64,000 bases of DNA from an uncultured Candidatus Rokubacteria bacterium (GTDB lineage: Bacteria; Methylomirabilota; Methylomirabilia; Rokubacteriales; DASRDR01), in assembly GCA_963805625.1 (NCBI GenBank), contig CAWDVE010000016.1, forward strand, positions 512,001 through 576,000. The letters are read 5' to 3'. The notes under the pieces were generated by a model. The model was given only the letters and a program-made list of their open reading frames with translations. It was not told where the DNA came from and did no database searches. Below, one piece after another: positions 17,260 to 31,289 of this stretch (position 1 is the stretch's first letter; each line of letters opens with the position of its first letter). Made by a program: the position numbers and the translations under genes.

Positions 17260-18756
17260 TGCTGTTGGTCCATAAGAATGTCATAGGCTAACTGTTCAGT
17301 GAGAGTGTCACCCCATGCCGACATGGGAGCCTCTCACGATGAGTCGCAAGGAAGTCCCGCGGCCCGGCCTGCTCAAGGCGGCCCTGGCCGGGAAGTTCAC
17401 CAATGCCGAGGGAGCCGGGGCCTTGCACCTGAGCGTCCGGCAGTTCATCCGGGTCAAGCATCGCTTCCAGGCCGCCGGGGCGTCGGGCCTGTGCCACCGC
17501 CTGCGGGGGCGACCCTCCCCCCGCCGGCTGCCGGCCGACGTCCGGGCGCGGGTGGCGGCGCTCCTGCAGACCACCTACCTCGATGTCAATGACTGCCACG
17601 CCACGGAGAAGCTGCGCGAGGTCGAGGGCCTCCGCGTCAGCCGGGCCTCCGTGCGGCGGATCCGCCGCGCCCTGGACCTGCCGGCCAAGCATCGCCGCCG
17701 GCCCCGCCAGCACCGGGCTCGCCGGACCCCGGAAGCCCGCATGGGCGTCCTCGTCCAGCTCGACGGCAGCCCCCACGCGTGGCTCGAAGACCGGGGCCCC
17801 GCCCTGACCCTCCACGGCGCGATCGACGACGCCACCGGCACGGTCCTGGCCCTGCACGTTCGGCCGACCGAGGACCTGCACGGCTACGCCACCGTGCTCC
17901 AGCAAATCGGTCTGGCCTACGGCCTCCCGCTGACCCTGTACGGCGATCGTTTCGGCGTTTTCGTCCGCAACGACCCGCACTGGACGCTCGCGGAAGAACT
18001 CCAAGGCCACCAGCACCCCACCCATTTCGGCCAGATCCTCCGAGACCTCGCCATCGGCTTCCTGGCGGCGGGCTCCCCCCAGGCCAAGGGGCGCATCGAA
18101 CGGCTCTGGCGCACCCTGCAAGATCGCCTCGTCGTCGAGCTCCGCCTGCGCGGGATCGCGACCCGCGCGGCGGCCAACGCCTTCCTCCCTGAGTTCCTCG
18201 CCGATTACAATGGCCGCTTCGCTCATCCCCCCACCGACGCCCACGCCGCCTGGCGGCCGCGGCCGCGGGACTTCGCCGACCAACTCAGCTGCCGCTACAC
18301 CCGCGTCGTCGCCCCCGACAACACCGTCCGCCTGGGGACCCGCTGGGCCCAGATCCCCCCCGGTCCTTCCGGCCGCTCCTCCGCGGGCCGCCGTGTCGAC
18401 CTCCGCGAGTGTGTCGACGGCCGGCTCCTTGTCGTCCGCGCCGGCGGGCGACTCGTCAGTCAGCCCTCGCCGGGGCCTGATTTCGTCCTCACGCCCCGCA
18501 GCAAGCCCCACGCGGAGCGCACGCGTCGCCTACGCGCCTCCAGGACTGCGTCGGAGGAGGGGGGCCGCCATCAGAGTATTCCCCAGAAACCGCCTGCGCG
18601 CCCCTCGGCGCGCCGCCTCACCCCGACCACCCAGACGGCTCGCCCCGCCGCCACGCATCCCTGGCGCCGCTCACTCAACCTCCGTCGCCACACCCCTCAC
18701 ACAGGGGTGACATTCTCACGGAACAGTTAGGGTGACATTTTCACTGGACAGCTACA
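17260..18756 (+). mobile_element. Intact IS1202-family (ISNCY) insertion sequence, 1497 bp, with 17-bp target-site duplication
   Basis: TCCGCGGGGTTCTCCGA at 17243-17259 and 18757-18773; TG...CA ends; long imperfect inverted repeats each holding two RTGTCA-ending sub-repeats. Confidence 0.9.
17315..18730 (+). CDS. ISNCY/IS1202-family DDE transposase
   Basis: LVQLDGSPHAWLE; AIDDATG; LYGDR; SPQAKGRIERLWRTLQDRL; C-terminal HPWRR. Confidence 0.93.
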   Translation: MPTWEPLTMSRKEVPRPGLLKAALAGKFTNAEGAGALHLSVRQFIRVKHRFQAAGASGLCHRLRGRPSPRRLPADVRARVAALLQTTYLDVNDCHATEKLREVEGLRVSRASVRRIRRALDLPAKHRRRPRQHRARRTPEARMGVLVQLDGSPHAWLEDRGPALTLHGAIDDATGTVLALHVRPTEDLHGYATVLQQIGLAYGLPLTLYGDRFGVFVRNDPHWTLAEELQGHQHPTHFGQILRDLAIGFLAAGSPQAKGRIERLWRTLQDRLVVELRLRGIATRAAANAFLPEFLADYNGRFAHPPTDAHAAWRPRPRDFADQLSCRYTRVVAPDNTVRLGTRWAQIPPGPSGRSSAGRRVDLRECVDGRLLVVRAGGRLVSQPSPGPDFVLTPRSKPHAERTRRLRASRTASEEGGRHQSIPQKPPARPSARRLTPTTQTARPAATHPWRRSLNLRRHTPHTGVTFSRNS

Positions 18757-21944: not shown

Positions 21945-22483
21945 GCAAATTCGCCCCCGGACGGCCACGCCGGCCCCCGCTTCGATGCTCGCGAGCGCCT
22001 CCATCGTCTCACCGGCGTCGATCTCACCCGGATCGATGGGATTGATGCCCCCATGGCCTCAGTGCGGTCGCCGAGATCGGGCTCGACATGACCGGTGGCC
22101 CACTGAGAAGCATTTCGCCTCCTGGCTCAGCCTCGCGCCCGGCAGCAAGGTCTCCGGGGGCAAGAAGCTCAGCAGCCGGACCAAACCCTCAGTCAGCCGG
22201 GTGGCGGCCGCGCTCCGTCTCACCGCCAGCTCTATCACAGCCAGTCCACCCTCGGCGCCTTCCACCGCCCACTGAAAGGCCGCTTCGGTGCTCCAGGCCA
22301 TCACCGCGACCGCCCACAAGCTCGGTCGGGCTCCGGTTCAGCACCGAATACGTCGACCGCGGTCAGGACTACTGCGAGCGACGGTACCAGCCCCGCGTCC
22401 TCTTCAATCTCACGCGCGTCCAAGAACTCGGCTACCGTCTCATCAAGAGCGACAACCTACCCACGACCACTTCACCGGCCTGA
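21945..22483 (+). pseudogene. IS110-family transposase remnant (C-terminal part, frameshifted)
   Basis: Fragments in different frames: LTGVDLTRIDGID; WPTEKHFASWLSLAPGSKVSGGK; AITATAHKL; EYVDRGQDY. Confidence 0.85.
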
Positions 22484-22499
22484 ACAGGTGACTTGGTCC

Positions 22500-22597
22500 C
22501 CGGCGACGCTGCCGAAGAGGTAGGCGGCCACGACACCGCGGTGCTCCCGCGCGAAGAACGCCCGGAGCGTCGGCTCGAAACCGCTTCAGTTCTTCAT
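22500..22597 (-). pseudogene. 5' remnant of a minimal nucleotidyltransferase (MNT-like) gene
   Basis: MKN*SGFEPTLRAFFAREHRGVVAAYLFGSVA; YLFGS motif; early in-frame stop; breaks off at the IS110 remnant before the DxD motif. Confidence 0.55.
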
Positions 22598-22742
22598 GAG
22601 CGGATTACAGAGCCGTTGACCCGACGCCGATTCTGACCGATTCAGGGAGCGTTGCGCCCTGGGTCGTGCCTCCGGTCGAGGGGTCAGGCCAGAGGGCGAG
22701 CATGCCGACCCAGGCGACTTGCCCCTCGGGCGGGATGCCGAG

Positions 22743-24098
22743 TCAGAACGACCGGATCAGGCGCTCCACCCGCTCGTCGTGAGCCTGGAACGGGTCCTTG
22801 CAGAGGATGGTCTCGCGCTCGGGGTCGTTCAGCTTGAGGTAGACCCAGTCCACCCGGTAGTCCTTGCCCTTGAGGTTCGCCCGGCGGATGAACTCGCCCC
22901 GGAGCCGGGCGCGCGTCGTCTGGGGCGGCGTGTGCTTGGCCCCCTCCACCTGCTCGTCGCGCACCAGCCGATCGACGCGGTCGTTCCGCGCCAGCAGGTA
23001 GTAGACGCCCTTGAAGGGCCGGATGTCGTGGTACTGGAGGTCGATGAGGGACACGCGGGGGTCCCGCCACGACAGGCGGTGCCGGGTCATGTAGTCCTCG
23101 ATCACCTGGCGCTTGATGACCCAGTCGACCTCACGGTCGCACTGGTTGGGGTCCGTTTCGAGCCGGGTCAGCATGTCGGCCCAGCGATCCAGGACATCGC
23201 GCGTCACCGGGTCGGCGTCGACGTGCTGCGCGTAGGCGAGGCACGCCTCCAGGTACTCCTTCTGGATCTCGAGGGCGGTCATGGCGCGCCCGTCCTTGAG
23301 CTTCACCGTCTCCCGGAGCCCTGGGTCGTGGGAGATGTCCCGGATGGCCTGGACCGGCGACTGGAGGCTGTAGTCCCGGTCGAAATAGCCGTCCTCGATC
23401 ATGTCGAGGACCACGGCGGTGGTGCCGACCTTGAGGTAGGTCGCGACCTCCGACATGTTCGAGTCGCCGACGATCACGTGGAGCCGCCGGTACTTCTCCG
23501 CGTCCGCGTGGGGCTCGTCGCGCGTATTGATGATGGAGCGGGACGAGGTGGTGGCGCCGGAGATCTCCTGGCAGATGTGCTGGGCGCGCTGCGACAGGCA
23601 ATAGTGGAAGCCCCGCGGCGTCTGGAGGACCTTGCCGGCGCCCGCGAAGATCTGGCGGGTCACGAAGAACGGGATCAGCGCCTCGGCGAGCCGCTGGAAC
23701 GAGACGTCGCGTGACACCAGGTAGTTCTCGTGGCAGCCGTACGAATTGCCCGCCGAGTCGGTGTTGTTCTTGAAGAGGAGGATGTTCCCCGAGATCCCGT
23801 CCTCGCGGAGCCGCTTCTCGGCCTGGTGCAGGAGGTCCTCGACGATGCGCTCGCCGGCCTTGTCGTAGACGACCAGGTCCATCACGTCGTCGCACTCCGG
23901 AGTGGCGTACTCCGGATGGAAGCCGGTGTCGAGATAGAGTCGCGCCCCGTTCTCCAGGAAGACGTTGGCGTTGCGCGCTCCCGGAATGACCTTCTCGAAG
24001 AGATAACGAGCGACGTTGTCCGGGGAGAGCCGGCGCTGACCGTTCAGCGTGCACGTCAGCCCGTACTCGTTCTCGAGCCCGAAGATGCGTCGCTTCAT
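22743..24098 (-). CDS. pafA: Pup--protein ligase
   Basis: [11 protein letters not shown]; [20 protein letters not shown]; [18 protein letters not shown]; [11 protein letters not shown]; DLQYHDI. Confidence 0.95.
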
Positions 24099-24820
24099 GA
24101 GGTCCCCGTGGGCCGGCCGCCCTCTGGCGGGTCGGGACGCCCGAGGATCGTGCGGAGCTCGCCGTTGGCGACGCGCCGGAACTTCCGGCGCTCGCGCTTC
24201 TGGTCGAGCACCGCGACCTCGAGGTCGCGGTCCGTCAGCGTCTTGTTCTGCGTGACCGTCAGTGCACGGATCCCCAGCCGCACCGCCTCGGCGAGGGGGG
24301 TGCCCTCTCGGTAGTGCTCCTTGAGGAAGCGGCGGATCTCCTCCGCCTGGCCACCCATGGCCGCGTAGTTGCGCTCGTCCTCGATCGACCCGTCGTAGAG
24401 GACATGATACATCTCGTTCTTCCCGTTGGAGCCGTCGGCCACCTCGACGACCAGCACCTCGACCTCGAACGGCTTGAGCCCCTCGGTGAAGATGGTCCCG
24501 AGCGCCTGGGAATAGGCGTTGGCGAGCGCCTTCGCGGTCACGTCCTCACGGTGGTACGAGTAGCCGCGGAGGTCGGCGTGCCGCACCCCTGCGATCCTGA
24601 GATTCTCGAACTCGTTGTACTTGCCGACCCCGGCGAAGGCGATCCGGTCGTAGATCTCGGAGATCTTGTGGAGCAGGGTGGAGGGGTTCTCGGCGACCAG
24701 GAGCACGCCATCCTGGTACTCGAGAGCGACGATGGACCGGCCGCGGGCGATGCCCTTGCGGGCATACTCGGCCTTGTCCTTCATCATCTGCTCGGGCGAG
24801 ACGTAGTAGGGAAGGGGCAT
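24095..24820 (-). CDS. prcA: 20S proteasome alpha subunit
   Basis: [26 protein letters not shown]; [24 protein letters not shown]. Confidence 0.95.
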
Positions 24821-24823
24821 GGA

Positions 24824-25654
24824 TCAGCGTCCCTGGCGCCGCGCCGCCACCACGGCCTCGCACTGGGCTCGCACCTCGGCCTCGGCGACCTCCTCGAACC
24901 CGGCGCGGGTGATCACCTTCACGGTCGGGAAGATCCCGTAGGTGAAATCGGGGCCGCCGGTCCCCACGTCTTCCTCCGCCGCGTCGACGAGCGCCTCGGC
25001 TGCCCAGCGGATTCCGTCGACTCGCGACGCGCCCGTCCGGTACAGCTTCTTGAGCGTGGTGCGCGCGTCCTTGCCGCCCGACCCGGTCGCCGCGTAGTCG
25101 GTCTCCTCGTACCGGCCCCCCGTGACGTCGTAATTGAAGATCCGCCCCTCGGCGCGGCGCAGGTCGTAGCCGGCGAAGATGGGCACGACCACGAGGCCCT
25201 GCAACGCCATCGGGAGGTTCATCCGGATCATCTGGCCGAGCTTGTTCGCCTTGCCTTCGAGCGACAGGCCGTCGCCCTCCACCTTCTCGTAGTGCTCGAG
25301 CTCCGTCTGGAACAGGCGGGCCATCTCGATCGCCGGTCCGGCCGCGCCGGCGATCGCGACCGCGGAGTACTCATCGGTCTTGTAGACCTTCTCGATCCGC
25401 CGGTGGGCGACCTGGTAGCCCTCGGTGGCCTGCCGGTCGCCGGCGACGATGACCCCGTCGGCGTACCGCAGCGCGAGGATCGTCGTCCCGGTCGGCACGC
25501 CCGGAACGCCGTGGGGCTCGGCATGGGGGGCCGGCCCGCTCACACCGGGGCGTGAGCCGAGCAGGTCCGGCGCCTCCTGGCGCAGGAGATCCACGAAGCT
25601 CCGGTTCACGTAGCGCCCGAAGAGACCTTGCCAGGACTCGTGCATGGGGGCCAT
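24824..25654 (-). CDS. prcB: 20S proteasome beta subunit with propeptide
   Basis: G-TTILAL autoprocessing site; AGDRQAT; LEHYEKVEG; ATGSGG. Confidence 0.95.
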   Translation of the reverse strand: MAPMHESWQGLFGRYVNRSFVDLLRQEAPDLLGSRPGVSGPAPHAEPHGVPGVPTGTTILALRYADGVIVAGDRQATEGYQVAHRRIEKVYKTDEYSAVAIAGAAGPAIEMARLFQTELEHYEKVEGDGLSLEGKANKLGQMIRMNLPMALQGLVVVPIFAGYDLRRAEGRIFNYDVTGGRYEETDYAATGSGGKDARTTLKKLYRTGASRVDGIRWAAEALVDAAEEDVGTGGPDFTYGIFPTVKVITRAGFEEVAEAEVRAQCEAVVAARRQGR

Positions 25655-25665
25655 CCGTAGGGGGG

Positions 25666-25671
25666 ATTATA
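25666..25671 (-). promoter_or_regulatory. -10 element just upstream of prcB
   Basis: Perfect TATAAT 11 nt upstream of ATG 25654 in GC-rich context; no clear -35. Confidence 0.5.
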
Positions 25672-25948
25672 CAGCCGAGCTTCGCCGGGAGCCGCGCCTT
25701 CCGGCGCCCCGGGTGTCCGGCTCTAGCGCCGTGGCCGATCCGCATCGCATCCCGTCGTCCTCGGTCGTCGGCGGCCCTCAACGTACAGGAGTACGCCTCG
25801 GGCCGCCTTCTCCCTGCGTCCTAGGGCTGCTCGCGTCTCGGCCACGGCACAAGTGGCCCGACAAGGCATCTAGAGTCCTTGAAGGACAGAACTTGGTGTG
25901 AATGAGTCAAGTTTTCGTGGGGCAACGATCTTGGGGGCGCCCACGGCT

Positions 25949-27445
25949 CTAGACGATGGTCGGCTTCGAGATGTTCTTGAGGAGATCCCGCGCGGTCGGC
26001 GACTGGTCGAACAGCCGACGCACGAGGGCCTCGGTGCCCCGCAGGGGCTCGAGCATGAAGATCTTCTTCAGCGGCCCCTCCTTGAGGTCGAAGAGCACCG
26101 AGTCCCACGAGGCCGAGACGATGTCCTCGGAGTAGCGCTGGAGGCACATCCCCCGGAAGTAGGCCCGCGTGTCGCGCGGGGGGTCGTTGACCGCTCGCGC
26201 GATCTCCTCGTCGCTCGCGATTCGCTCGACCGCCTCGGACTGCTCGAGCTTGTAGTAGAGGCCCTTGCTCGGCCGGATGTCGTGGTACTGGAGGTCGATC
26301 ATCGCCACCCGGGAATCGGTCCAGCCCACTCCGTGCTTGGCCCGATAGCTCTCGAGGAGATCGAGCTTGATCACCCAGTCGAGCTCGCGGCTGAGTGACA
26401 TCGGATCCTGGGCGAGCCGGTCCAGCACGTGCTCCCACCGCACCAGGACGTCCTTCGTCACGGGATCGAGCTCCCGGTCCCGGTAGTAGCGGTGGGCCAG
26501 CTCCAGGAACTCCCGCTGGAGGTCGATGGCCGTCACGGTCCGCCCGTCGCGGAGGCGAAGCGTCGACCGGCAGGCGAGGTCGCGGGAGACCTGGCGGAAG
26601 GCCTGGACCGGGCTGTCCAGCGAGAGGTCCCGGTCGATGAAGTCGTCCTCGATCATGGACAGGACGATCGCCGTGGTCCCGACCTTGAGGTAGTTCGCCA
26701 CCTCCGACATGTTGGCGTCGCCCACGATCACGTGGAGCCGGCGGTACTTCTCGGGATCGGCGTGCGGCTCGTCCCGGGTGTTGATGATGGGGCGGGAATG
26801 CATCGTCTCGAGGCCGACCTCCGTCTCGAGGAAGTCCGCACGCTGCGAGACCTGGTACTCGGTGTACTCGAGGTTGTTCTCCGACCCGACCTTGCCCGCG
26901 CCGGTGAAGATCTGGCGCGTGACCAGGAAGGGCATCATGTACTGGACGATCCGCGTGAAGGGGCAGCGCCGGTCCATGAGGTAGTTCTCGTGGGTGCCGT
27001 AGCTGTTGCCCTTGGAGTCGGTGTTGTTCTTGTAGATGAGGATGCGCTGCTCGGGCGGGGAGGCTGCTTCCGCGCGCCGGCGTGCCAGGTCGAGGATTCG
27101 CTCGCCCGCCCGGTCCCAGACCACGAGGTCCCGCGGGTTCGTGCACTCCGGAGTCGAGTACTCGGGGTGGGCGTGGTCGACGTAGAACCGGGCCCCGTTG
27201 GGCAGGATCAGGTTGATGAGGCGCGACTCCTCCTTGGACGGGAGCTCCTTCTCCTCGGCGTACTCGAACCCCCGGGCGTCCCTGAGCGGGCTCTCGGCCT
27301 CGTAATCCCAGCGGATGCGGGCGGTGCGGTAGGTCTCGTAGGAGTTGATGAGGAGGAGGGAGGACAGGATCGGGTTGAAGTCCGCCTGGTTGCGGACCGT
27401 GATCCCGTACTCGGTCTCGATCCCCATCACCTTCGGGATGGCCAT
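25949..27445 (-). CDS. dop: Pup deamidase/depupylase
   Basis: VMGIETEYG; Dop-loop RWDYEAESPLRDARGF; NGARFYVDHAHPEYSTPE; SASWDSV. Confidence 0.95.
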   Translation of the reverse strand: MAIPKVMGIETEYGITVRNQADFNPILSSLLLINSYETYRTARIRWDYEAESPLRDARGFEYAEEKELPSKEESRLINLILPNGARFYVDHAHPEYSTPECTNPRDLVVWDRAGERILDLARRRAEAASPPEQRILIYKNNTDSKGNSYGTHENYLMDRRCPFTRIVQYMMPFLVTRQIFTGAGKVGSENNLEYTEYQVSQRADFLETEVGLETMHSRPIINTRDEPHADPEKYRRLHVIVGDANMSEVANYLKVGTTAIVLSMIEDDFIDRDLSLDSPVQAFRQVSRDLACRSTLRLRDGRTVTAIDLQREFLELAHRYYRDRELDPVTKDVLVRWEHVLDRLAQDPMSLSRELDWVIKLDLLESYRAKHGVGWTDSRVAMIDLQYHDIRPSKGLYYKLEQSEAVERIASDEEIARAVNDPPRDTRAYFRGMCLQRYSEDIVSASWDSVLFDLKEGPLKKIFMLEPLRGTEALVRRLFDQSPTARDLLKNISKPTIV

Positions 27446-27520
27446 GCCGTCCTCGAGCCGGTCCGCGTCACCCGTGCCTACCGGCGCCCTCCGGCGCCCC
27501 GCTGGGAACGCGGCCGACAG

Positions 27521-27558
27521 AAAAGGGGTGAGGGGGCGACCCGCGCTCCCTCACCCCT
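27521..27558 (-). terminator. Intrinsic terminator after arc
   Basis: AGGGGTGAGGG / CCCTCACCCCT stem followed by a short T-run on the minus strand. Confidence 0.7.
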
Positions 27559-27563
27559 GCCGC

Positions 27564-29387
27564 CTACAGGTACTGGCCGGTAGTCTGACGCTCCACGGGT
27601 CGGTGCTTGTCCTTGCTCTCGCCCGTGAGCGGCTTGACGTAGACGATCCGCTCGCCCTTCTTCCCCGCGATCTTCGCCCAGTCGTCGGGGTTGGTCGTGT
27701 TGGGCAGGTCCTCGTTCTCCTTGAACTCCTCGCGCACGGCCGCCAGCAGGTCGTCGAGCTTGACGCCCTTCTCGGCGCTCGCGATGTAGCGCTTGAGCGC
27801 GAGCTTCTTGGCGCGACGCACGACCGACTCCATCATCGCGCCCGAGGCGAAGTCCTTGAAGTACAGGATCTCCTTGTCCCCGTTGGCGTAGGTGACCTCG
27901 AGGAAGCGGTTCTCGTCCGCGATGGTGTACATGGCGTCGACCGCCATCTCGATGAGCCGCGCGATGGCCGCCGACATGTCATCGCCGTGGGGCCGGAGCT
28001 CCTGCTCGTGCATCGGGATATCCGGCGTGAGGTACTTTGCCATGATGTCGGCCGCCGCCTGACGGTCCGGCCGGTCGATCTTGATCTTCACGTCGAGCCG
28101 CCCGGGCCGAAGGATGGCGGGATCGATCAGGTCCTGCCGGTTCGAGGCGCCGATCACGATGACGTTCTTGAGCCCCTCGACCCCGTCGATCTCGGCCAGG
28201 AGCTGCGGCACGATGGTCGTCTCGACGTCGGAGGAGATCCCCGAGCCGCGCGTGCGGAAGAGCGCGTCCATCTCGTCGAAGAAGACGACGACGGGCACGT
28301 CCTCGGCGGCCTTCTCCTTGGCCTTGACGAAGATCTCCCGGATCTTCCGCTCGGTCTCGCCCACGTACTTGTTGAGGAGCTCGGGGCCCTTGATGTTCAT
28401 GAAGAAGCCCTTGATCTTCTCCCCGCGCTTCTCCGAGACCTTCTCTGCCAGGTTGTTCGCGACCGCCTTGGCGATCATCGTCTTGCCGCACCCCGGCGGC
28501 CCGTAGAGGAGGACGCCCTTGGGCGGCGCGAGCTTGTGCTCGCGGTAGTAGTCGGCGTAGAGATACGGGAGCTCCACCGCGTCCCGGATCGCCTCGATCT
28601 GGGACGTGAGGCCGCCGATGTCCTCGTACTGGATGTCGGGGACCTCCTCGAGAGCCAGGTCCTCGACCTCGCTCTTCGGCAGCTTCTCCAGGAGGTAGCC
28701 CGACTTCGAGTCCATGAGGAGGTGATCGCCAACCTTGAGCTTGGCCGGGCGGAGCGGCTCCGCGATGACCGCGACCTTCTCCTCGTCCGCCCGCACCGTG
28801 ACGACCGCGCGCGCCTCGTCCAGGGTCTCCTTCATGATGACGACCTCGCCCTGGATCTCGTAGCCCGCCGTCTCGATGACGTTCAGGCCCTCGTTCAGGA
28901 CGAGCTCCTGCCCCGGCTTGATCGATTCCTTCCCGATCGACGGGTGGAGGTTCACCTTGACCTTGCGCCCGCTCGACAGGATGTTCACCGTGCCGTCGTC
29001 GTTCAGCGAGAGGAACACGCCGTAGCTGGAGGGTGGCGCGCAGAGCTTGTCCACCTCTTCCTTCAGGGAGGAGATCTGCTCGCGCGCCTCGTAGAGCGTG
29101 TTCACGAGCTTCTCGTTCTGGTTGAAGGCCTGGACCAGCTGCCGGTTCGCCTCCCGCAGCTTGTTCTCCAGGACGACGAAGTCCTTGGGGATCTCCTCGA
29201 GCTTCTTCCGGAGATGCACGACCTCCGTCTCCATGGCCCGGGCGTGAGCCTGGAGATCCTGGATTTGGATCTCGTACTCCGTCAGGCGGCGGCGGTAGGC
29301 GGATTCCGTCATTGGCAGGAATTTTGACAGCCCCTTGACACCCTCGGAGTCACGGGGAGGATTCGCCTTCTTTTCGAACTCTTTCAT
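27564..29387 (-). CDS. arc: Proteasome ATPase ARC/Mpa
   Basis: N-terminal coiled coil; GPPGCGKT; [16 protein letters not shown]; FFDEMD; [12 protein letters not shown]; C-terminal GQYL docking motif. Confidence 0.96.
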
Positions 29388-29474
29388 GGCCTCCCGTCCC
29401 TCTCGGCGAGCACTGAGACCGCGCCGCGCCGGCCGGGTCCGGCGCGGGCGACTCTACCCCCGCCAGCTTGAGCA

Positions 29475-29504
29475 ACTATAGGCGGCGCTGGAAAAAAAAG
29501 TCAA
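29475..29504 (-). promoter_or_regulatory. Sigma-70 promoter upstream of arc
   Basis: TTGACT-N18-TATAGT. Confidence 0.65.
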
Positions 29505-29575
29505 GTTGTGGAGCCATTCCCGCCCCCGTTCAGACGTGCCGTTGCCATCACGCTGCCTTCTGACGCCCGAAACCG

Positions 29576-29591
29576 TGCAACGCCGGTGCCA
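29576..29591 (-). promoter_or_regulatory. Sigma-54 promoter upstream of arc
   Basis: TGGCAC-CGGCG-TTGCA, exact -24/-12 consensus, oriented toward arc. Confidence 0.7.
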
Positions 29592-29669
29592 GCGACGAGT
29601 CGGGCGCGGGTCGAAAGGTCCCGCGCGAGAGGGGTCCGCGGAGCCGAGACATCTCTATAATGGGCGCCA

Positions 29670-31289
29670 ATGCGCCCCAGGGCTGCTCGACGGTGTCGGT
29701 GTCCCCGGAGTCCGGCGCGCGCGGCAGTCCTTGTCAGCTTCATCGTACTGTTCGCCGTCACCCGTCTCGCCAGCGCGGCGCCGGCCGCCGAGCTTCACGT
29801 CGGCGTGCTCCACGTTCCTGCGAGTCTCGATCCGGCGGAGGCCACGGCGTCGTCCCAGCTCCTGGCGATGCGCCTGCTCTACCAGGGCTTGGTCGCATTC
29901 GGCGAGCGAGGCGACATCGAGCCCGCTCTCGCGACGACGTGGACCGTCTCCCGCGACGGGCTGGTCTGGACCTTCCGGCTCCGCCAGGACGTCCTGCTTC
30001 ACGACGGCACCCCGCTCGGGCCCGATGAGGTCGTCGCGACCCTCGCCGAACGGATCTCCGCCGACGAGCCCCCGGACGGCGCGCCCCCCTGGGTCCGTCC
30101 CTTCCGCGGCGCGGGGCGGGTCGTCCGGGAGGTGCGACGCGGTGAGGGCGCGTCGGTCCAGATCGTCGTGGGGCAGCCATACGCGCCGCTGCTCGCGCTC
30201 CTGGCCCATCCCGGCCTCGCGATCGCCGTCGCGCGGTCCAGCGGCCCTCGGGTCGGGAGCGGGCCTTACCAGGCCGTCGAGCTCACACCCGATCGGCTCG
30301 CGCTGGAAGCGGCGCCGGTCTGGCGAGGGGACCCGCCCCACAGCGCCCGCCTGATACTGCACGCGGTCGCGGACGACGCGGCCGCTCTCGCCGGGCTCGC
30401 TCCCGGAGGTCCTCTCCATGCGGCGCTGCTCGCCGCCCCCCCGGCCTGGGCCGCGGTGGGCCTCCAGGTCATGTCCGGGCCGACCCGGCGGGTCGGACTC
30501 CTGGCGCTTCGGACCGACCGGGGTCTCACGAGCCGCAAGACGGTGCGCCAGGCCGTGGCGCTTGCCCTCGATCCCGCGCTCCTCCGCCCGGCGCTCGGGC
30601 AGTGGGCGGTGCCGCACGCCGCCTGGCTGCCGCCCGGCGCCTGGGCAATGCGCGACGCCAGCACCCTCCTGTTCGACCCCGCGCGAGCGAGGCGACTGCT
30701 GGCTCAGGTCGCTCCGGTCGACCCGACGTTGACCCTCCTCGCGTCGGACCAGGTCTCGGGGCCAGAGGCCGCGGGCATCGCCGACGCCATCCGGCTCTCG
30801 CTGGGCGCCGCGGGCTTCCGCGTACAGGTGCGGCTGGAGCCGCCGGACGCGGCCGAGACCGCCGCGCGGCAGGGTGCGGCAGAGCTGACCCTCCACGAGG
30901 AGACGCTCGAGGTGAACGACCCCGACATCTTTCTCCGGCGGCTCCTGGCCACCGACGGAGCCACGCCCGGGAGCGCGACCAACATCGCCTTCCTCCGGAG
31001 CCCGCTGGTCGATGGCATGCTGTCGCGCGCGGGCCAGCTCGGGTTCCGGCCCGAGCGCTTCCGGCTCTATCAGCGCCTCCAGGGGCTCCTCGGCGAGGAG
31101 TTGCCGTACGTGCCGCTCTACGTCCGGCTCCAGTGGATGGTGGCTCGACCCGAGGTGCGGGGCATGGCCCTGGATTCTGCTGGGCTGCACCGCCTCGAGC
31201 GCATGAGCCTCGAGCCTCCGCCCGTGCCCGCGCCGCCGGAGGCTCCACTGAACCCGCTCTCGGGGATGCCACCGCCCACACGTCCGTGA
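29670..31289 (+). CDS. ABC transporter substrate-binding protein, family 5 (DppA/OppA-like)
   Basis: SLDP; IEPALATTWTVSRDGLVWTFRLRQDVLLHDG; GSGPY; VRQAVALALD; TATAAT at 29656. Confidence 0.88.
   Translation: MRPRAARRCRCPRSPARAAVLVSFIVLFAVTRLASAAPAAELHVGVLHVPASLDPAEATASSQLLAMRLLYQGLVAFGERGDIEPALATTWTVSRDGLVWTFRLRQDVLLHDGTPLGPDEVVATLAERISADEPPDGAPPWVRPFRGAGRVVREVRRGEGASVQIVVGQPYAPLLALLAHPGLAIAVARSSGPRVGSGPYQAVELTPDRLALEAAPVWRGDPPHSARLILHAVADDAAALAGLAPGGPLHAALLAAPPAWAAVGLQVMSGPTRRVGLLALRTDRGLTSRKTVRQAVALALDPALLRPALGQWAVPHAAWLPPGAWAMRDASTLLFDPARARRLLAQVAPVDPTLTLLASDQVSGPEAAGIADAIRLSLGAAGFRVQVRLEPPDAAETAARQGAAELTLHEETLEVNDPDIFLRRLLATDGATPGSATNIAFLRSPLVDGMLSRAGQLGFRPERFRLYQRLQGLLGEELPYVPLYVRLQWMVARPEVRGMALDSAGLHRLERMSLEPPPVPAPPEAPLNPLSGMPPPTRP

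Follow-up and report, generated by a model that had tools for sequence, protein, structure and literature searches.

In an uncultured Candidatus Rokubacteria bacterium, the operon arc-dop-prcB-prcA-pafA carries the genes of a pupylation and proteasome system in their canonical order, save for the gene of the tag itself: no pup stands in the 294-nt gap between dop and prcB. Where, then, is the protein tag of this organism encoded, and is it Pup at all? The question arises from what has been published on these loci, since the accessible sections of two papers state that pup "invariably" adjoins a gene of the PafA family (PMC2588565) and that, in most actinobacteria, it immediately precedes prcB/prcA, with a rigidly conserved gene order (PMC3511204). 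This usual layout, in which pup adjoins dop or pafA upstream of prcB, is descriptive and not mechanistic, and it is not the layout found here. We analyzed the operon in a window of 64,000 nt (the whole stretch of DNA considered, part of contig C16) together with the rest of the genome (G000) and its relatives. These analyses indicate that the operon is intact and that pup forms part of a dcd-pup-fmdB unit on a different contig. The two loci together probably make up a standard Pup-proteasome system, a reading to which we assign a probability of about 0.93 on the basis of sequence. A relocation of pup explains the empty slot; the tag is not an unknown one, nor was pup recently lost from the slot or dropped by a mis-assembly.

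Gene identities were called from NCBIfam equivalog cut-offs, as bit scores against the cut-off (Table 1). An earlier note on this DNA, based on the letters alone, had described a pupylation cluster lacking pup at its canonical site, with five other genes that looked intact and retained their catalytic motifs. Both descriptions hold: the coordinates are right, no pup was found in or near the gap, and all five products score above their equivalog cut-offs. A motif check likewise found the processing site of PrcB and the C-terminal tail of Arc. Dop carries the N-terminal segment specific to Dop, and its residues 5-490 align to the solved depupylase 5lrt (E = 2e-175); residues 2-449 of PafA align to the solved ligase 4b0t (E = 2.5e-121). 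The two enzymes are distinct, each passing its own equivalog cut-off and staying below that of the other. They are also the only two PF03136 genes recovered by a search of the whole genome. We observed, in addition, a gene for an ISNCY-family transposase (471 aa, above cut-off) at positions 17315-18730 of the window, 4 kb downstream of pafA.

Table 1. Coordinates of the proteasome operon, the dop-prcB gap and the distant pup gene (window positions unless a contig is given; scores in bits).
Feature	Position	Strand	Description
arc/mpa, proteasomal ATPase	27564..29387	-	607 aa, C-terminus GQYL; TIGR03689 749 vs cut-off 505
dop, Pup deamidase/depupylase	25949..27445	-	498 aa; TIGR03688 636 vs cut-off 492
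REP/MITE-like insertion	25718..25943	.	226 nt, polymorphic between close strains; absent from 9/9 aligned same-genus gaps
Palindromic core of insertion	25728..25848	.	121 nt, bounded by 11-bp inverted repeat; dispersed repeat family
Ancestral dop-prcB spacer	25655..25717	-	alignment to same-genus gaps; conserved TATAAT at 25666-25671
prcB, 20S proteasome beta subunit	24824..25654	-	propeptide and catalytic Thr (GTT); TIGR03690 301 vs cut-off 192
prcA, 20S proteasome alpha subunit	24095..24820	-	TIGR03691 336 vs cut-off 139
pafA, Pup-protein ligase	22743..24098	-	451 aa; TIGR03686 629 vs cut-off 551
pup	G000:C13:478518-478718	-	outside the window; 66 aa, ends GGQ; PF05639 and TIGR03687

Searches around the operon did not yield any tag gene. 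None of the stop-to-stop frames of at least 20 aa overlapping positions 25550-26050 ends in G[EQ], and neither strand of positions 22000-30000 presents a frame of at least 40 aa with G[EQ] before its stop; these scans agree with the earlier observation that no Pup-like C-terminal motif occurs in the gap or near the operon. The whole-genome search with the Pup profile that the note had proposed found one canonical Pup: PF05639 yields a single match, on contig C13 (76.8 bits; cut-off 27), and this protein also passes TIGR03687 (64.1 bits; cut-off 41.45). The pup gene is preceded by a ribosome-binding site and starts 9 nt past the stop codon of a dCTP deaminase gene, with a gene for an FmdB-type zinc-ribbon protein 5 nt further on. 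The C-terminal half of this Pup aligns to the Pup chains in solved complexes of Mpa, Dop and PafA. A scan of the genome for acidic frames of at least 40 aa ending in G[EQ] returned 400 frames, including 58 with GG[EQ] or R[ST]G[EQ], and the Pup of C13 was the only tag-like protein among the top 12 of each ranking of G[EQ]-ending frames. The best match to UBact (NF033388) in the genome reached 13.5 bits, below its cut-off of 35. Because there are only two PF03136 genes, a single Pup match and no UBact, we infer that the genome encodes one tag and one ligase. The note's suggestion that the modifier is encoded elsewhere was therefore correct, and the existence of a normal pup elsewhere reduces the case, as the note itself had foreseen, to a relocation.

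The estimated contamination of this genome is 6.26%, and we therefore checked the provenance of the pup locus. Over 3.2 kb, it is 96.0% identical at the DNA level to the corresponding locus of a relative (G013), whose proteasome operon is 97.7-98.8% identical to that of the window. The titles of the best 80 of 233 Pup relatives mostly refer to Ca. Rokubacteria or Methylomirabilota, the others being labeled "uncultured bacterium" in some cases and Saccharibacteria in one. These sequence comparisons indicate that the pup locus belongs to the lineage of the window's organism.

The distribution of both loci was analyzed across this genome and 40 relatives (41 in total). Pup was detected in 40 genomes, the sole miss being a genome that is 68% complete, and prcB scored above its cut-off in 36. 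Within the order, each of the 30 prcB loci examined presents dop directly upstream and no pup; at most 128 nt separate the dop stop from the first aligned prcB codon in 27 of them, and the three longer gaps (294 nt here, 232 nt in G019 and 223 nt in G018) contain no frame ending in G[EQ]. A larger sample of the phylum comprised 121 genomes, with Pup in 114 and prcB in 104. Relative positions were counted in 104 genomes with both genes, using one prcB row for each and excluding three secondary fragment rows. Within the same order, pup does not adjoin prcB in any of the 78 genomes having both: the two genes are on different contigs in 76 genomes, and they are 303 kb and 1.2 Mb apart in the two genomes where they share a contig. 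Location on different contigs does not by itself prove separation in fragmented assemblies, but the 30 loci and the two same-contig cases do. The split layout is common to the whole order. It constitutes an order-wide exception, in an abundant uncultured soil lineage, to the published rule of pup beside dop or pafA, and calls of a "missing" or "orphan" pup based on gene neighborhood in these genomes are therefore false alarms. The finding is of modest weight, being a variant gene order with no new tag or chemistry. Ten genomes that are each at least 90% complete (G027, G029, G031, G083, G101, G104, G110, G132, G066 and G068) were found with Pup and without a prcB match at E 1e-15, which reflects either assembly gaps or a loss of the proteasome.

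The length of the gap in the window has an origin of its own. Only the final ~68 bases of the window's gap can be aligned with nine gaps from the same genus, and the gap of the closest relatives is 68 nt long. The 294-nt gap consists of this 68-nt spacer of the genus and an insertion of 226 nt. The note had judged the gap large enough for pup and had proposed aligning it across relatives; the length was correctly reported, but it is due only to the insertion, and the alignment reveals a 68-nt ancestral spacer that the relatives share without it. The TATAAT hexamer of the spacer was found in 14/14 loci of the same family and in 1/12 others, and is predicted to act as an internal -10 box upstream of prcB-prcA-pafA. 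A promoter and terminator scan found nothing, its sigma-70 two-hexamer search yielding no site. RNA runs contain small shares of the gap region (0.15-0.32).

The insertion is flanked by a 9-bp direct repeat (25718-25726 and 25944-25952), and at its outer left end the match is imperfect. The region 25720-25950 is predicted to fold more stably than shuffled sequences (z = -4.0; 0/200 shuffles as stable). Three other copies of the palindromic core were found in the genome at E <= 0.006; they cover the core only, and ~95 nt of the insertion, with a GC-content of 54%, are missing from them. Related copies are present in the loci of three relatives: in the dop-prcB gap of G019 in the opposite orientation (L059:2425-2537), between prcB and prcA of G018, where the first 17 codons of prcA also occur a second time (L063:2248-2359), and directly ahead of a pup gene in L086 (L086:2866-2976). 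REP/MITE-type repeats are small, non-autonomous elements. The insertion resembles them in being short, palindromic, intergenic, variable between strains and flanked by direct repeats, and in the dispersal of its core; it differs in its low copy number, with the three other copies, and a search of the gap for structured RNA gave no Rfam match (best E 0.13). Four public DNA runs (X1-X4), one of which may be the source sample so that not all are independent, were searched for both forms of the locus. Contigs of X2 and X4 skip exactly the 226 nt between near-identical flanks and represent an empty-site allele. A 505-nt contig of X1 is identical to the inserted form across the junction on the prcB side, and short identical contigs of X3 tile the junction on the dop side, none of them spanning it by 31 bases. 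The insertion is genuine and polymorphic between close strains, and it is not a replacement of pup. The segment 25869-25912, on the lower-GC left side of the insertion, is also present in unrelated contigs of X1 and X3, which suggests that it derives from another mobile sequence.

These observations bear on the two other explanations offered for the empty slot. The gap is longer than in relatives, as would be expected if pup had recently been lost from it, or dropped by a mis-assembly, and the 294 nt were its remnant. Yet the additional 226 nt carry a palindromic repeat element along with a direct repeat, and no Pup-like sequence; the inserted and the empty allele both occur in public runs, and the empty one leaves no space for pup, which contradicts the mis-assembly considered by the note. 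The recent loss that the note also considered is at odds with a pup-less operon present in 30/30 prcB loci of the order. We regard this explanation as scarcely credible. A divergent and unrecognized tag, with the distant Pup irrelevant to the operon, is nearly as implausible: beyond the empty slot between dop and prcB, nothing speaks for it. PafA and Dop pass the equivalog cut-offs of the actinobacterial type and align with solved enzymes over nearly their whole length, a canonical Pup is found in 40/41 genomes, UBact was not found in the genome, and in 27/30 loci the dop-prcB gap could not accommodate a tag gene. The divergent tag that the note had listed thus gives way to a canonical Pup encoded at a distance.

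With pup relocated, the system would be expected to operate as follows. Dop would deamidate the terminal Gln of PupQ to Glu, PafA would then join PupE to lysines of the substrates, and Arc would bind the Pup tag and feed the substrate via its GQYL tail into the PrcAB 20S core for degradation, with Dop also recycling Pup. This scheme is taken by analogy from established knowledge of the family; the accessible text of PMC3511204 describes the successive steps from deamidation by Dop, through ligation by PafA and tag recognition by Arc, to degradation in the 20S core. An unlinked pup would need only a separate promoter, because all the parts are diffusible proteins.

Pup and PafA are a textbook pair, and the same six components as in the actinobacterial and Nitrospirae systems (Mpa/Arc, Dop, Pup, PrcB, PrcA and PafA) are present here, all above their family cut-offs. 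The Pup of those systems has 60-70 aa and ends in GGE or GGQ, and the protein found here has 66 aa and ends in GGQ; the order arc-dop-prcB-prcA-pafA is canonical save for pup. The difference is that pup is unlinked from the operon (C13 against C16) and belongs to a dcd-pup-fmdB unit. The UBact system likewise associates a small tag, enzymes of the PafA/Dop family and proteasome genes in diderm bacteria. The present system is similar in these respects, but its tag is Pup, with UBact not found in the genome, and there is one dop/pafA pair only. Homologs of Dop and PafA have been described as sporadic in draft genomes of NC10, in a paper whose accessible part does not mention Rokubacteria (PMC7947786). 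Our search of the literature on pupylation or proteasomes in Rokubacteria or Methylomirabilota, judged by titles and the beginnings of abstracts and with most subscription papers and all supplements outside its scope, found no work on this layout.

We further analyzed the position of pup in the sister families, using gene maps of 16 stretches. In families f8, f9 and f12, pup adjoins prcB in 10/10 genomes (8/8, 1/1 and 1/1, respectively), and the gene order in f12 is moaB-fmdB-arc-dop-pup-prcB-prcA-pafA. The order in f11 is pup-fmdB-arc-dop-prcB-prcA-pafA, with moaB ahead of pup in the fully read locus and pup 4.0-4.2 kb upstream of prcB in 5/8 genomes. In the eight genomes of f7, pup is apart from prcB, with 50 kb between them on one single-contig genome, and a moaB-pup-fmdB group is distant from arc-dop-prcB. 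One genome of f9 (G049) contains both the canonical pup and a second pup after moaB, the two copies being 71% identical. The simplest reading of this distribution is that pup would have been copied from the dop-prcB slot to the moaB-fmdB junction ~4 kb upstream, that the original between dop and prcB would then have been lost, and that the pup-fmdB pair would later have parted from arc. It is plausible that the sister families preserve intermediate steps of this move, with the duplication intermediate represented by one genome, G049. We also built an unrooted tree from Dop, PrcB, PrcA and PafA of 21 genomes (locus L105, described below, was excluded, having no match that passed the identity filter). 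In this tree, the order is set apart from all other families with a support of 100, and the branching among sister families is weak (46 and 34). Because the tree leaves these families unresolved, the proposed sequence of steps is argued from parsimony, the canonical layout being assumed ancestral on the basis of the accessible parts of PMC2588565 and PMC3511204. The tree is compatible with one relocation or with several.

The neighbors of the relocated pup are themselves conserved. Among the best 80 of 233 Pup relatives, fmdB follows pup in 78 loci; in 76, the gene ahead of pup encodes a dCTP deaminase, of the short TIGR02274 type in 35 and of the long DCD_N/DCD_C type in 41 (40 and one truncated). 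L001:1708-2262 and L033:280-1407 are examples of the two types in Rokubacteria. Such frequencies, a deaminase slot occupied by two different enzyme types, and the retention of pup-fmdB in f7 and f11 despite another upstream neighbor could mean that pup is kept with both genes by co-regulation, or that FmdB acts with Pup as an adaptor, a sensor or a preferred substrate. We consider this unlikely, as the pairing is a matter of neighborhood alone among kin that are not independent. In f12, fmdB is upstream of arc without an adjoining pup, and fmdB is therefore plausibly a mere neighbor at the landing site. A gene for a 598-aa oxidoreductase separates pup and fmdB in G049, the upstream neighbor in f7 and f11 is moaB with no deaminase, and the extra pup copies of family f1 are without both neighbors. 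Were the pairing functional, it would for the first time assign a role to a zinc-ribbon family that has no known function. The broader proposal is slightly more doubtful still: in Methylomirabilota, Pup might be under separate control and paired with the FmdB zinc-ribbon, which would be a novel participant in pupylation, either an adaptor or a metal/redox sensor, and the dCTP deaminase slot, kept through an enzyme swap, would link the supply of Pup to the nucleotide or nitrogen status.

Additional pup genes were observed outside this unit. Stand-alone paralogs that are 46-59% identical to the Pup of C13 are present in unrelated neighborhoods (L005, L017, L018, L022 and L024); they occur in several genomes of the same family, and two are followed by the same gene for a Cys-motif protein. 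Finally, a genome assembly titled uncultured Saccharibacteria, with a GC-content of ~50%, contains a locus (L105:1-5195) with arc, a dop-like gene, pup and a pafA-like gene. The 3' part of its Arc is 80% identical to the Arc of the window and ends in GQYL, and its Pup ends in GGE and is 74% identical to that of C13. The products of its divergent dop-like and pafA-like genes score 185 and 250 bits, far below the Dop and PafA cut-offs. This locus is possibly a transferred and fast-evolving pupylation locus in a Patescibacteria genome.
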